A stretch of 61,206 bases of DNA, the filler included. It is 5 parts of 5 records of this genome, joined end to end, with 100 filler letters (N's around TTAATTAATTAA, not from the genome) between each part and the next. Parts side by side here need not be neighbours in the genome. Positions count along the whole stretch, not along the records: positions 1 to 5,761 come from SRR22947725_3354; 4 more parts are not named here. One strand, written 5' to 3'. The translations under genes and the position numbers were made by a program. The notes under the pieces are model-generated. The model had not been told where the DNA came from. It saw nothing but the letters and a program-made list of their open reading frames with translations, and did no database searches. Numbering within the stretch: the stretch's first letter is position 1; every line of letters begins with the position of its first letter. Shown here piece by piece: positions 1-52,306 of the stretch.

Positions 1-6
1 GCATCG

Positions 7-63
7 GCAACAAACACATTCTAATTGAACCAGCATCCCGCAACAAACACATTCGAATTGAAC
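7..63. repeat. 33-nt period direct repeat
   Basis: gcaacaaacacattc(t/g)aattgaac at 7-30 and 40-63. Confidence 0.7.
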
Positions 64-211
64 AGAGCAGCATCGGCAAGAAGTGGCGCTGAGGATGACT
101 TCTTTCCGGTCCGTGCTGCATGTGCTTGGGCGGGGCCATGGCCTTCTCCAATGATTTTACGCATAGTGTCAACAATAGTGCTCTTGGTCACTGGCAGTTG
201 ATCAGTCACTA

Positions 212-2610
212 CTATTGTTCTAACAGGGCAGCAAGGTTGATCTTGGATCGGTTCGCCGTTGCCACGCCGATGTTCGTGCGATTGACTTGCTCCGCAAATC
301 GGAGTGTCTGCATTATTCGACACATCAAAAATATGGGAGAATCTACAGTAAGGTCACAAATGATCTGACACGGACAGGCGTCTGGGTCCGCACAACAGCA
401 ATGAATACATACTGGTATTGGGTATACCATGACACATGATCATATCTGCACACTCACACATATCGACTCCTTGATCGAGTCCCATTGAGGTGATACGTGT
501 GATATCATCAGCATTTTGCTTTCCCCTCCTGCTTGCGCGGATAAGTGATCATCGGTACCACCGTGAGTGGGCCGAGTGATTTTCAAGGACATTGTAAATG
601 TAAAAGTGAAAGTTTGAAGTTTGATTAGGCTAACTTGTTTAAATGAGTGCAATGCGACCACATCGCTGTGGCTTGTCGAGGTCACTTACCCAGTGCTTCC
701 TGTAGCAGATACGTCAATTTAGAGTCTCGATAAGGGATGTGATCGCTGCGGTTTGCCAGCGATGAGATGACCGCAGCTAATGCACTCAGGCTTCGGTTGA
801 TGTACTGTAAACCATCACACATGCAACAGGATATCGTGAACAGGCGTCACAGGTGAGTGTATGCATCCTTGATATGTGATCAATTGCTCAGTACTTATGC
901 AATTGGTGGGCTCAAAGCTGATCCATCATGAAACTGTAAACATGGCTCACAGCACTGCAATCATGGCATGTGGTCTGTCTGCATGTGCGTGCCATCGAAT
1001 CGGTGACTTGAAAAATGGTGAAGATGAAGCAGTGAAGTAATCACACCTGGGCCTCACGAAGCCTTTCTCCTTTGGCATCAGTCTTGGATATTCGTTCGCT
1101 CCCAGCCAGGTCGATCAAATTGAGAGAGCCTTTGATTGTACCAGTTGGCATATTGCAGCTGACATCGAGCTGAAAGACACTGTGGCTTCTTGATGACCTG
1201 TGATGTGCAGAAAATGAGTATCAGCACATTTATGTGCCTGATGTGCAAAAAAACAAAACTAAATATCAGAGCACACGTGCATGTTGCGGCATGCCGGCCC
1301 ATCTTATCCATCGCGGATATCTGATTCATTCACGACAGTCTGACAGCCTGTCAGTCTGTCAGTCTGTGGTGACATGTATCAACCTGGCGTTGGCGGAAGT
1401 TTCCCCAACACGTCGATTGGAACCAGCGATGTCGAGTAAGTGCATCACATCTTGTCTTGACTCCACTCTCACGACCTGTTATACACACAGACACACACAC
1501 ATACAAGTTTGATTCCACTCTCTCGACCTGCAGTATACAAACACATACTGTATAGTACATGTCCAAAAGTCATACTCGGATACCGAGATGGACATGTCTC
1601 GTGCTCACTGCTGATCTCTCATCACGCGATAGTCACGCGATAGTGATATGTAGTATGCAACATCTCTTGCTCATGGCCATCATTTGAAAACGCGATAGGA
1701 TACACTGTATGTCGCATGAACTCTGCGGCTACCATGACTCCGACCAAAAACATACCAAAAACATACCAAAAACATACCTGGGCCCCTTCGACGGTTGTGG
1801 TTCCGCGGTCATGCCTGATGGACAATTTCGGAGTCTTGGGGTGCCGTGTAGGAGAGGCGTGTCTGACAGGCGAACTGTGTTTGTTTGGTTGGTCTGACAC
1901 AAGTAAATCACGTAGTTGCTCGTTATACACTTCAACGAATCGACAGCTGATCTCGAACGTGCCTCCTTGCTCATTCTCCAGTTGCGACACCAAGTCAAAA
2001 ATCTTCTCGATGGCCCGTGGAATCACCCCTGCATAGTGCGATTACGTAATCGGTCTTTTGAGTACTCCCGGGAAACAACGGTCACAATTGGAATAACCAC
2101 TCACACAACACATATTGATGTGGTCAGCTGTTCGTAACCTTCTTTACGCAAGCGTAAATGCCATTAGTCAGCATTGCCTTAAAAAAGCGAACGCACGCAC
2201 ATTCAAACCCAAAATTGTAACGACCCAACAAGCAAGCATCAATCCACGCATACGGGCAGGAACCAACCTCTAAGTTCAGGATCCGTCTTTCCTTCGCCTT
2301 CCATTGTGTAGGTCTTGCCACTCCCTGTCTGACCATACGCAAAGATGCAAACAGAATATCCATCCAATACCGATTGAACCAGTTCCGACACCTCTTCAAA
2401 AACATTGAGCTGATCCGATCCCCTGATGACCTTGTCGTATGAAAACGTCATTTGTCCAGAGCTTCTGCCTTGTTCACGTACCTCCAAGATTTGCTTGCCC
2501 TCCCTATCCGACTCAGTGGGGTACCGATAAGGTCCTTCATCGTCAGCATTCACGGGAGATTCCAGTTGAGGTCGTACACGACAGTACACCCGAATATTAC
2601 CACGTAGCTC
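212..2610 (-). other. Kinesin-14 (Kar3/Ncd/KIFC-type) motor domain exons
   Basis: C-terminal motor preceded by the ELRGNIRV neck; ATPase and microtubule-binding motifs intact across 7 exons. Confidence 0.95.
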
Positions 2611-5573
2611 CTGTTCAGAAAACCGCCACATACACCAACATCACGGGAATTCAGAATACGGTATGTCGATGTCTAGCGAAAGAAATACGACTGAAGCATA
2701 TGGTCACATGTGGTCAAATGAAGAAGATGACCGAGCTTAATATCAAGCACATCTGATATCACCACAAGTGAAGCAAATGAAATGAACTCATCTGCGATAA
2801 GACATAACAGCATATCACGAGAGGACAAAGGCAAACCTAACCAATCGGAGGATCAATGTTGGTGATAGCCCCGTTACCTGTATCAGATTGTGCATACGAC
2901 GGCGATCTGTTTCGTACGTCTGGCACCGGGTCTGGAGCTCGTTCAAATTTGATTTCAAGCTCTGCAGCTCCTCTACAGCTGAATTCCTCTGATTGGCCGT
3001 CTCCTGCAGTTCGGATTGTATCGCCAGCATCGATGCCTCGGCATCTGACTGGAATGATGTCAGACTCTGTTGAAGACCCTCAGCCTTGCGCTGCCATTCA
3101 GTCGCGGTCTCTTCGGCTTTCTTGGCCCGTTCCGACGCCTTGTTGGACGTGGTGATCAGCTCAGCAGCACGCTGGTGCTGCGTATCGAGAGACGAGACTT
3201 GCTGCTTGTATTGCTGATCCTGATGCCGGAGCTTCGCTTGCAGATCACGTATCTGCGAGTGTTGCGCCTCCACCTTCAACAGCAACTCTCCATTATGCAG
3301 TGTAAGATGCTGGTACGGTATGGAGCTGACGGTCGTGCTGCAGAACGACGCAAGACTACCAACATCTTCCTCATCTTCTGTCTTGTCAACATTCCGTGCG
3401 ATGCTATTTCCAATCAACTCGGATGCTTGACCATCAGCAGGAATTGGAGTCCACAGCACCTTGGTATGATCCGTCACAGGTTTGATGAGCTCAGTGCCTA
3501 GGTTGAAGCCGACAGGCTCCACCCCTTGACGCACCACCTGTGTCGTGAATTTATGACAGGATTTGACAGTGAGCATTTCAATCTATTGGTGTAAACCATG
3601 AATGCACCCACGCACCTGCACTTCTCCCGCATGTTCATGCCGCTGCAACAGTTTTACGTGAAGGTGGGCGGCAGAGATACACTCTGCAGCGGCATCACTT
3701 CCGATCCATATACACACGAAATCACCGCTCCCCTGTGAGTTGTTTAGGTTGCCGCACTATACGTCAGTTGATTATAACGCAGCAGGAGTCACGTGACCAT
3801 GCATATCCTGATCCGGTAGATCCTCAGACCTCAAATATGCCCTGCGCTATGACGTCCATCTGCGTGCCACGGGGCAACGTGACCTTTGATCGGAAGAATC
3901 GACACGAACCCCCACCGATCATTCAAGGCATTATGTCAAGAAGGGAGCGATGCGTTGGTGACAGGATGACCTGCATTACGAATACGTCGGTGTTGACAAC
4001 GTTGTAGTTGTTGTCCACATCACGCTTGATTCGTGGCATCCAATCAAGCTCTGTTTCATGAGAGTAGGCTTCCATCCAATACACTACCCGCCTTTTTGCC
4101 CCGACTGCGTGGTGGCCAATTCATTTTCCTTGTGGTTTCCTTTTCACCTTTCGTGCTACACTTAAAAATGCACTTGACACTGACAGTCAGCGCCGGCGAT
4201 TCAAGCGATTTTTACCCAACAGAGTCAATACATGCAGTCATTGGACTCTCACCCTTCAGCCTCGCTTCCAATTCCATGAGCTGTGCCATATATCCAGAGA
4301 GTAGAAGCGGAATCGATTTTGGAAGTCGGACTGCTTGAAATGCATCATTATAACAGAGTCCATCTTGGAGCATCAAGCATGACACACACACAGTCAGTGA
4401 CGGCGATACGTCCAGGCAGGAGACCATAACCTTACCCGACTGCCTGCGAGCGTCGGATATGATCTCTGTGCATTTGTATATAACGCATATCATGTCATTT
4501 GAGTGATCGTCGGGGATGAATAAGGGCACGTGATTGATGCTGGGGTCCATTGCATTGGTTTGCAGTTTAGGATTATCCAGCTTGTCCACGAGGTTGATCA
4601 CATGAGTGATTCCTTTGGCTGACCACATCGTCCTGCAGTGAAAGAGAGCGCATGTCAGTCGATGCGTTGGGACTGAGTGCGAGCTGTACTGAACAGGTAA
4701 CAGGAAAGAACGTGCGAAGTGGAAGGAAGTGCATTCCACAGTGAGGTGAGAGGTGGTGGAGAGGTGGACAAGTGGAGAGGTGAGCGAGTGCGTGGAGAGG
4801 TGAGCGAGTGCGTGGAGAGATGAGCGAGTCGGTGGAGAGGTGAGCGAGTCTGGATAAGGGCGACGGGGGAGGGAACATTCACGCAGGCGGCCGACCAGCA
4901 CACACAAACCAAACCAAACCAAACCTGGACAGTGGAGTATCATCCAACGCCATGTAGAGGTAACATGTGATTTCCAACACTGATTCCACCGGATTAGATG
5001 TGATCTCCAACACTGATTCCACCGGATTTTGCGGCCTGGTGGATTGCAGCGACGCAGCTGAAGATTCAGGTTGACTCTCAGTGTCAAGGATGGAGGAAGA
5101 TGGTGATATCATGGCAGAAGTCGTGTTGGAAATGACCGATGAATCTGTGACGGGTTCGGAATGTGATGATCTGGTTGAGTTTGGTGTGGAGAGAAGGTCG
5201 ATCAGGAAGGAGCCCGAGGTCTTGCGGATCGGAGTGGTCGATGTGGAAGAGACGTCTGCGGTATTGGGGGTGGAGGGCACGAGTGTGGGAGTGACGGAGG
5301 CGACATTGTGTGGGATAGGGTCAGGAGTGATGGGGGAGGTATCTGATGGAGATCCTTGAGAAGCTTTGGTATCGAGTGGACCAAATGTACTGAGCTCGGA
5401 GCCAGGTGCTGTGAATTCAACAGGCAGTGGAGGGTTGCCTGTAGTGTTGGAGGTGCTCATGGTGGTGGTGGTGGTGGTGCCTTCACGATGCAATGGAGCG
5501 GGGAAGGCATCATCGGTGGATGTAGTGGACATCGAGAGCTGCCTTGTGACAGATGGGCCAGTTGAACAGTTGC
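212..5573 (-). CDS. Spliced eukaryotic gene: DSP-like + gelsolin-like + coiled coil + C-terminal kinesin-14 motor (12 exons, probably 5'-truncated)
   Basis: Hand-spliced exons (minus): 5573/5532-4925, 4632-4253, 4104-3971, 3732-3616, 3537-2878, 2610-2268, 2028-1778, 1475-1384, 1197-1047, 804-690, 528-458, 307-212. All introns are GT..AG and all phases match; 3018 nt from ATG 5532 gives 1005 aa + stop. Kinesin motifs: neck [24 protein letters not shown]-loop GQTGSGKT, switch I NARSSRSH, switch [24 protein letters not shown] pyrimidine-rich CAG acceptor at 5576-5574 suggests further upstream exons. Confidence 0.85.
1746..1778. repeat. 11-nt tandem repeat x3 containing the 5' splice site
   Basis: (aaaaacatacc)x3, i.e. 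GGTATGTTTTT x3 on the minus strand. Confidence 0.9.
3505..4104 (-). other. Gelsolin/villin-like repeat (MKP1-type)
   Basis: Spliced [18 protein letters not shown]...[22 protein letters not shown]...[30 protein letters not shown] carries the D-(V)F-hydrophobic, WIG and QGxEP..F gelsolin-repeat hallmarks. Confidence 0.7.
4253..4995 (-). other. Dual-specificity-phosphatase-like domain with degenerate active site
   Basis: EITCYLYM...KGITHVINL...LFIPDD...[31 protein letters not shown]...YNDAFQAVR...[10 protein letters not shown] follows the DSP consensus; the HCxxGxSRS loop appears as SCLDVSPS. Confidence 0.8.
4772..4851. repeat. Intronic 20-nt minisatellite, about 4 copies
   Basis: gtggagaggtgagcgagtgc-like units within intron 4633-4924. 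Confidence 0.85.
4965..5028. repeat. 33-nt in-frame exonic tandem duplication
   Basis: atgtgat(t/c)tccaacactgattccaccggatt at 4965-4995 and 4998-5028, encoding [10 protein letters not shown] twice. Confidence 0.9.
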
Positions 5574-5761
5574 CTGCGTCATGACAAAGAGTGCATGTTG
5601 CACGAAACAGAGACTAAATGGGGTGAGAAGTGGCGGAGAAATACCGTAGAACGCCGTCTCACAGCATGATGGTATGTTAGCTGATACAATGGTGGTACTA
5701 AATGGCATACACATGTAATGGTACTACATGTCATGCCCGTGCAGTCAACTTCCACACAGCA

Positions 5762-5861
5762 NNNNNNNNNNNNNNNNNNNNNNNNNNNNNNNNNNNNNNN
5801 NNNNNTTAATTAATTAANNNNNNNNNNNNNNNNNNNNNNNNNNNNNNNNNNNNNNNNNNNN
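5762..5861. other. Artificial contig linker
   Basis: N-run + TTAATTAATTAA (stop in all six frames) + N-run; composition changes abruptly across it. Confidence 0.98.
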
Positions 5862-15294: not shown

Positions 15295-15394
15295 NNNNNN
15301 NNNNNNNNNNNNNNNNNNNNNNNNNNNNNNNNNNNNNNTTAATTAATTAANNNNNNNNNNNNNNNNNNNNNNNNNNNNNNNNNNNNNNNNNNNN
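15295..15394. other. Artificial contig linker
   Basis: N-run + TTAATTAATTAA + N-run. Confidence 0.98.
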
Positions 15395-21274: not shown

Positions 21275-21374
21275 NNNNNNNNNNNNNNNNNNNNNNNNNN
21301 NNNNNNNNNNNNNNNNNNTTAATTAATTAANNNNNNNNNNNNNNNNNNNNNNNNNNNNNNNNNNNNNNNNNNNN
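21275..21374. other. Artificial contig linker
   Basis: N-run + TTAATTAATTAA + N-run. Confidence 0.98.
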
Positions 21375-52206: not shown

Positions 52207-52306
52207 NNNNNNNNNNNNNNNNNNNNNNNNNNNNNNNNNNNNNNNNNNNNTTAATTAATTAANNNNNNNNNNNNNNNNNNNNNNNNNNNNNNNNNNNNNN
52301 NNNNNN
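52207..52306. other. Artificial contig linker
   Basis: N-run + TTAATTAATTAA + N-run. Confidence 0.98.

Follow-up and report, generated by a model that had tools for sequence, protein, structure and literature searches.

A putative kinesin-14 with a dual-specificity pseudophosphatase fold and a gelsolin repeat in its tail, encoded on a eukaryotic metagenome contig

Kinesin tails set the cargo of the motor and its site of action, and the locus described here raises the question of whether a minus-end kinesin can carry, within its own chain, a tail taken from a phosphatase. The stretch of DNA that was analysed, referred to below as the window, is 61,206 bases long and consists of five unrelated contigs, not of one locus, with a guanine plus cytosine (GC) content that ranges from 0.24 to 0.65. 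The gene in question lies on the first contig (window positions 1-5761, GC about 0.47–0.50), which is the sole contig of the five without long open reading frames of prokaryotic style; it is eukaryotic and carries introns. As judged from its sequence, one eukaryotic gene on this contig probably encodes a fusion protein of 1005 residues in which a dual-specificity phosphatase (DSP) fold and a gelsolin repeat precede a kinesin-14 motor.

The gene is read from the minus strand, to which the coordinates of all its parts refer, and is composed of 12 exons and 11 introns, all of the GT..AG type and with consistent phases. Spliced together, the exons form an open frame of 1005 codons followed by a TAG stop at 214-212, with introns of 78–302 bases and 22 of 22 splice dinucleotides intact. 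All 11 introns end in CAG once the acceptor of exon 11 is set at 528. The start is taken as the first in-frame ATG, at 5532-5530, and an in-frame stop (5616-5614) lies 27 codons upstream. An initial annotation of this DNA had proposed 12 GT-AG exons with matching phases and a product of at least 1005 residues, and the frame rebuilt here from the window sequence agrees with it, including the four junctions that it named (4253/4104, 3971/3732, 3616/3537 and 2878/2610), which are identical in the rebuilt model. Its 5′ end of the gene, placed at 5573, has to be moved to the ATG at 5532.

Pfam, AlphaFold and database searches were run exon by exon, and the spliced protein of 1005 residues was scored with separate profiles, built from database proteins only and containing no window sequence. 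A joint DSP and gelsolin profile made from 82 MKP1-type proteins matches residues 186–424 as one domain, with 137.7 bits (E 3.1e-44) and small gaps only in the alignment, which spans junctions 1/2, 2/3, 3/4 and 4/5. A kinesin-14 profile made from 103 database proteins matches residues 595–994, also as one domain, with 463 bits, or 474 bits when the exon 11 acceptor at 528 is used, and its alignment spans the remaining seven junctions. The profiles are collinear, and the order that had been read from the DNA earlier is thereby upheld: a region rich in serine, threonine and proline (S/T/P), the DSP fold, a gelsolin repeat, a coiled coil, the kinesin-14 neck and the motor.

The same profiles allow each splice to be assessed. 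At every junction all GT donors and AG acceptors within 90 bases that keep the frame open were paired and the products scored, and the proposed junction is top-ranked among these alternatives at 10 of the 11 junctions. It is first of 36 at junction 1/2, of 21 at 3/4, of 23 at 4/5 (and of 34 in a wider scan), of 8 at 5/6, of 26 at 6/7, of 30 at 7/8, of 15 at 8/9, of 6 at both 9/10 and 10/11, and of 18 at 11/12. Junction 2/3, which falls in a variable linker, ranks fourth of 16, at most 2.6 bits below the best.

Exon 1 (4925-5532) encodes approximately 185 acidic, S/T/P-rich residues and then, from about 4977, the 17 residues with which the DSP domain begins. Its frame is open, the other two frames contain 3 and 9 stops, and no Pfam family matches it. 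Serine, threonine and proline together account for a fraction of 0.50 of the N-terminal 185 residues, which contain 6 lysines and arginines versus 18 aspartates and glutamates, along with 8 S/T-P sites. The exon also contains a 33-base tandem duplication (4965-5028, 1.9 copies, 96% match), by which an 11-residue peptide is repeated directly N-terminal to the first strand of the DSP domain.

The core of the DSP fold is encoded by exon 2 (4253-4632), which matches Pfam DSPc at E 3.3e-13, with 50 bits against a cutoff of 33.5. Its best solved relatives are phosphatases of mitogen-activated protein (MAP) kinases, led by 1mkp, PYST1/DUSP6 (E 2e-6), and followed by DUSP9, DUSP4 and DUSP7. The catalytic P-loop, located within this exon at 4398-4421 (residues 274–281), is degenerate. 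In HMMER alignments with DUSP6-type chains and with the profile of 82 proteins, Cys275 is retained, Pro280 occupies the position of the catalytic Arg, and the loop falls one residue short of HCxxGxxR. No CX5R signature is found in the DSP region, and this signature is present in 146 of the 150 nearest DSPs (the best 150 of 241) and in 81 of the 82 gelsolin-bearing ones. Labelling the domain a predicted pseudophosphatase is justified because the DSP has lost CX5R.

The relatives of this domain are identified through an exhaustive HMMER search with the DSP exon against 1.84 billion representatives, which returns 241 proteins with E values of 1e-3 or lower. The closest of them matches at E 1.2e-10 with 38% identity, so that the exon has no close relative there. 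A Pfam scan of the best 100 of the 150 listed (one protein of 2970 residues being skipped) gives DSPc in 100, Gelsolin in 32, MPK1_gelsolin_C in 16 and Kinesin in none. These neighbours are of the MKP1 type and, taken with the lost signature, they match the earlier description of an MKP1-like pseudophosphatase. From the ESM Atlas, exon 2 retrieves only generic DSPc clusters (score 0.90), and when it is modelled alone and without an alignment AlphaFold2 gives a predicted local distance difference test (pLDDT) value of 41.9.

A DSP domain followed by a gelsolin domain is described as the architecture of plant MKP1 (PMC11182583). At least 80 residues follow the DSP in 97 of the 150 relatives, and 82 of these 97 have one common module there. 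The MKP1-type order is DSPc, a Gelsolin repeat about 40 residues further on, a long spacer and MPK1_gelsolin_C, the last of which is not universal, being recognised by Pfam in 16 of 100 relatives. In the present gene, exon 3 (3971-4104) encodes the linker between DSP and gelsolin together with the N-terminal half of the gelsolin repeat, exon 4 (3616-3732) encodes the core of the repeat, and the first 11 codons of exon 5 (3505-3537) encode its C-terminal end. Exons 3 and 4 have no Pfam match; the exon 4 segment corresponds to the position of the Pfam Gelsolin match in the homologues. When scored with three profiles made from the post-DSP module, exons 3 and 5 each give about 0 bits on their own (-1.6 to 3.0), exon 4 alone 25.6–27.7, exons 3 and 4 together 30.8–32.9, and exons 3, 4 and 5 spliced 38.4–38.9 bits (E about 5e-14). 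The first 11 residues of exon 5 thus add 5.6 to 7.9 bits over exons 3 and 4 or over a read-through of intron 4. When the first 15 residues of exon 5 are shuffled, none of 200 versions reaches 141.1 (mean 135.8, standard deviation 0.7, maximum 138.0).

The number of gelsolin repeats was assessed with a further profile, whose seed was the C-terminal gelsolin domain as defined by Pfam and on which the gelsolin segment scores 24.6 bits; this profile also took in the first repeat and was used only to count segments of gelsolin type. The sole match is at residues 370–424, and no second segment is found in the model or in the six frames of the contig. Where a gelsolin module had been proposed, one repeat after the DSP at the spacing of the family can therefore be retained, but a multi-repeat module and a C-terminal gelsolin domain cannot. 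The expectation of matches to DSPc, gelsolin and kinesin held in part: Pfam recognises DSPc and Kinesin on the exons, but has no match for the gelsolin repeat on any single exon.

The physical link between the phosphatase-like module and the motor is provided by exon 5 (2878-3537), a single open frame of 220 codons whose other two frames contain 10 and 11 stops. As anticipated from the DNA, the link from gelsolin to coil is located within this one exon, in which the last 11 gelsolin residues are joined to a helix of 145 residues. Because the end of the gelsolin repeat, the helix and the start of the neck share exon 5, the fusion depends on one splice, that of the 78-base intron 4 at 3538-3615. 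Between repeat and helix lies a linker of about 65 residues (residues 12–74 of the exon, 3316-3504) without recognisable homology: searches with exon 5 in Pfam, the ESM Atlas and protein databases identify nothing for it, and most of residues 1–74 have pLDDT values under 50. Residues 75–220 (2878-3315) comprise the coiled-coil stalk together with the N-terminal half of the kinesin-14 neck. AlphaFold2 predicts a single helix for residues 75–219 with pLDDT above 90, Pfam reports weak coiled-coil families only, and the ESM Atlas generic coiled-coil clusters.

For two copies of this helix the prediction is a dimer, parallel and in register, with contacts spaced at 3–4 residues. The score is 0.52, the best of three controls reaching 0.00, and three runs share at least 98% of contacts with a pLDDT of the partner of at least 87. 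In calibration, the mark used for dimers is attained by 21 of 30 microbial proteins solved as pairs of one chain and by 0 of 23 solved as single chains, and among eukaryotes by 17 of 29 pairs and 0 of 30 single chains. This predicted dimer may have passed because it resembles coiled coils of known structure.

The motor is located at the C-terminus, ending 10 residues short of the stop, and its neck is aligned without gaps across junction 5/6 in the kinesin-14 profile. Exon 6 (2268-2610) encodes the remaining half of the neck and leads into the motor, with the P-loop at 2334-2311, and matches Pfam Microtub_bd (E 3.7e-28, 98.8 bits) and Kinesin (E 1.1e-22). Pfam Kinesin is above its cutoff on exons 6, 7, 9 and 10 (E 1e-22 to 7e-10), namely at E 7e-10 on exon 7 (1778-2028), at E 2.6e-13 on exon 9 (1047-1197), which contains switch I and switch II, and at E 4.3e-14 on exon 10 (690-804). 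Exon 8 (1384-1475) scores 13.8 bits, below the cutoff, and is collinear in the profile alignment. Exon 11 (458-528) and exon 12 (212-307) have no Pfam match; the latter encodes the end of the motor, where the alignment reaches residue 994, and the TAG stop. The motor motifs are intact, with the P-loop at residue 726, switch I at 863 and switch II at 891, and together with the C-terminal position and the 463-bit match they confirm the kinesin-14 neck and intact motor that had been claimed for the locus. No CH (calponin-homology), MyTH4 or FERM domain is found by Pfam on any exon.

Exon 11 has tandem acceptors 3 bases apart (525-531), of which 528 yields the canonical double-Gly motif of the motor and 525 one Gly fewer. 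The kinesin-14 profile gives 474.0 bits with 528 and 465.2 with 525; the former closes the sole gap in the motor alignment and yields the 1005 codons. Alternative splicing of one codon at this exon is possible. Exon 7 contains an insert of approximately 17–25 residues (about 1812-1886), aligned as a gap in the 103 kinesin-14s, with S/T-P sites at residues 800, 806 and 813, two of which have an Arg two residues later. This insert is a candidate regulatory phosphorylation loop.

With regards to the type of kinesin-14, exon 6 scores 94 bits against Ncd, 93 against Kar3, 83 against KIFC1, 72 against KIFC3, 64–69 against KCBP and 50 against kinesin-1 among solved structures. Over the whole motor, identity is 47–50% to KIFC1, Kar3 and ATK-type proteins and 36–42% to the CH-kinesin and KIFC2/3-like ones (36.5% to the CH-kinesin P0009, which carries the CH domain PF00307). 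Both BLAST and solved-structure scores thus favour the Ncd/Kar3/KIFC1 type. A FastTree tree of 104 sequences, from a reference set biased towards kinesin-14A, places the motor beside divergent sequences, a CH-domain kinesin and a KIFC2/3-annotated protein, with support of 0.9, on a long tip branch of 0.88. Because this branch is long and the sampling biased, the tree was not used to assign a subfamily.

The combination of domains appears to be absent from the material searched, in line with the earlier remark that it is not known among kinesin-14 tails. No kinesin motor is found in the 150 nearest DSP proteins (the best 150 of 241), and no DSP-gelsolin module in the 120 nearest kinesin-14s listed or, in any frame, in 80 metagenome kinesin-14 loci (464,867 bases in total, none above 54% identity). 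Indexed searches against longer proteins with the DSP exon (67 candidates) and with exon 5 (1190) yield no orthologue, which counts as weak evidence, and full-text literature searches turn up no kinesin reported to have a DSP or gelsolin domain. The main text of a survey of kinesins from 45 genomes is silent on phosphatase and gelsolin domains, and its supplementary architecture tables may list one; that text reports 105 architectures among 1624 kinesins, most of them each restricted to a single species (PMC2867816), so that a new kinesin tail is not surprising by itself. Identity to exon 6 does not exceed 54–56% across the 80 metagenome loci and the 120 database kinesin-14s listed, and sampling of the source lineage seems sparse.

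Several points nevertheless weigh against a single gene encoding such a fusion, or against parts of its interpretation. The gene is seen on a single metagenome contig of 5.8 kb only, and a metagenome scan with the DSP exon finds no orthologue of the same architecture. The case for one transcript is made from homology across the junctions and not from RNA, and at junction 2/3 the position of the splice is not fixed by homology. Pfam Gelsolin (PF00626) has zero matches on single exons, and the gelsolin call is one made by purpose-built family profiles. The motor is firmly a kinesin-14 by its sequence, and the tree and the BLAST and structure scores disagree on its subfamily. Residual or altered chemistry is possible in a DSP domain that has kept Cys275. 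The proposals of the initial annotation, that the motor carries or scaffolds a phospho-MAP kinase and that it connects actin with microtubules, are inferred rather than observed, and the same applies to the binding of phosphoproteins and to the direction of movement. Finally, intron 4 contains an ATG at about 3576, 13 codons before the acceptor, from which a frame of 233 codons runs into exon 5, making a kinesin-only transcript possible.

This last point leads to the alternative of two transcription units, in which a DSP-gelsolin gene ends in a retained intron 4 and a kinesin-14 gene starts within it, the fused product being absent or minor. Reading through from the donor at 3616 does meet a stop after 10 codons (3585-3583), and none of the searches has found a fused orthologue. 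However, only a few bases separate this stop from the ATG, too little space for a terminator or a promoter, and the read-through product has a gelsolin repeat that is 11 residues short and scores 31.0–33.3 bits versus 38.4–38.9 for the spliced one. The spliced junction 4/5 is the first of 34 and of 23 alternatives, MKP1-type relatives extend well beyond this repeat, and the frame started at the ATG earns 0.4–2.9 bits, equal to exon 5 alone. Furthermore, intron 4 has the canonical GT..CAG form of the other ten introns. We consider two separate units improbable.

Joining by the assembler of two genes from different organisms, a DSP-gelsolin gene and a kinesin-14 gene fused in the linker at about 3504-3316, would be an artefact of a kind that a lone metagenome contig invites, the more so as the linker matches nothing and the other contigs of the window demonstrate that the record mixes organisms. 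One DNA run, with a share of 0.07, contributes two identical 151-base pieces (34-184 and 317-467), none over the join; its other matches are conserved P-loop or repeat stretches of other organisms, and no junction is covered. A random join would nonetheless have to keep the frame, and exon 5 is open for 220 codons with 10 and 11 stops in the other frames. The linker contains no repeat able to seed a misjoin. GC, the range of intron lengths and the GT..CAG signature are alike on both sides, and so is GC at third codon positions (GC3), at 0.56 upstream of the join and 0.55 downstream; since GC3 and the common intron signature agree in this way, one source organism is indicated for both halves. 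A chimera is hence very unlikely.

Equally hard to credit is a decaying, non-functional fusion left by a recent accident of exon shuffling, with a dead phosphatase under no selection: several independent changes have removed the catalytic signature, exon 1 carries a 33-base tandem duplication bordering the DSP domain and no orthologue attests conservation, but 1005 codons remain open over 12 exons with all 22 splice dinucleotides intact, the motor motifs are perfect, the DSP is still above its Pfam cutoff, the joint module scores 137.7 bits, and pseudophosphatases are described as a known functional class (PMC8907265).

If a single fused gene is accepted, it can be compared with known systems. 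With the kinesin-14A group (Ncd, Kar3, KIFC1 and ATK) the predicted protein has in common a C-terminal motor, an adjoining conserved neck, a long helical stalk predicted to be dimeric and intact ATPase motifs. The tail of a classical kinesin-14A is a basic, ATP-independent second microtubule-binding region. Here, in contrast, the first 185 residues lack this basic character (6 lysines and arginines versus 18 acidic residues), the tail is acidic and contains the DSP fold and the gelsolin repeat, and the motor has an additional S/T-P-rich insert. Among other kinesin-14s, the tail of KCH is a calponin-homology domain and that of KCBP a MyTH4-FERM module. The idea common to these and to the present protein is a minus-end motor whose tail contains a folded module from the actin or the signalling world, the module borrowed here being a phosphatase fold with a gelsolin repeat.

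With plant MKP1-type proteins the similarity lies in the DSP fold followed by one gelsolin repeat, with order and spacing unchanged. The differences are the loss of CX5R, the lack of a C-terminal gelsolin domain, an identity of at most 38% to any member and, in place of everything beyond the first repeat, a kinesin stalk and motor. STYX and MK-STYX likewise have a DSP fold with a disabled catalytic motif, and the STYX-type structure 2r0b matches at E 0.0017. STYX lacks the catalytic Cys, whereas the present domain retains Cys, has lost Arg and has a shorter loop, and its nearest relatives are of the MKP1 type, not STYX. No STYX protein fused to a motor was found in the literature searched. STYX and MK-STYX are described as DSP-fold pseudophosphatases inactivated by changes in the catalytic motif (PMC8907265).

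A connection between kinesins and MAP kinase signalling has a precedent in plants. The kinesin NACK1/HINKEL is a member of a different kinesin family. In the NACK-PQR pathway it is physically coupled, through the MAP kinase kinase kinase NPK1/ANP, to a MAP kinase cascade, and plant kinesins are known to be coupled to MAP kinases only by way of separate proteins (PMC2951530). There, separate proteins and a kinase are concerned, whereas here a phosphatase fold is part of the motor chain itself.

Regarding function, the helix would provide a parallel homodimeric stalk, and the C-terminal motor with its conserved neck would walk to microtubule minus ends. The dead phosphatase with its gelsolin repeat would replace the basic microtubule-binding tail and act as a cargo or targeting adaptor. 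The likeliest ligands would be phosphorylated proteins that are bound but not dephosphorylated, in the manner of STYX-type pseudophosphatases, and, given the descent of the fold from MAP kinase phosphatases, a phospho-MAP kinase would be the first candidate. By analogy with pseudophosphatases (PMC8907265) and with the coupling of a plant kinesin to a MAP kinase cascade (PMC2951530), a role as an adaptor that binds phospho-MAP kinase is put forward tentatively. Actin binding by a single gelsolin repeat is possible, and nothing here favours it.

A more speculative and rather doubtful proposal is that of a built-in phosphoprotein reader, which might haul an activated MAP kinase to minus ends or bind the phosphosites of its own chain at residues 800–813. 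The former, if true, would turn a diffusible signal into one positioned at spindle poles or basal bodies; the latter would mean that an autoinhibition switched by phosphorylation is encoded in one chain. Either would constitute a coupling of motor and signalling undescribed for any kinesin. What is distinctive in the predicted protein is a MAP kinase phosphatase fold, dead for catalysis and well folded by profile, attached covalently to a presumed minus-end motor. If expressed, it would offer a compact genetic handle on how phospho-signalling is positioned on microtubules, and it would hint that the MKP1-type gelsolin repeat and DSP fold together form a transferable binding unit. In addition, homology profiles prove able to validate multi-exon models on short metagenome contigs from uncultured eukaryotes.

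A few minor features of the sequence can be added. Intron 1 contains a 20-base tandem repeat at 4772-4849 (3.9 copies, 93% match), where the DNA run mentioned above displays small indels from other contigs. Inspection of intron 7 by eye reveals, at about 1508-1531 of the minus strand, a decoy copy of the exon 8 acceptor and first codons, which looks like a partial duplication of the start of exon 8. An imperfect direct repeat of approximately 25 bases, also noted by eye, occurs twice in window positions 1-80, at the contig end and in the presumed 3′ untranslated region. Beyond the first contig, contigs 2–5 are crowded with long open reading frames of prokaryotic style, and the five contigs are separated by four spacers, at 5762-5861, 15295-15394, 21275-21374 and 52207-52306, each of which consists of 44 N, TTAATTAATTAA and a further 44 N.

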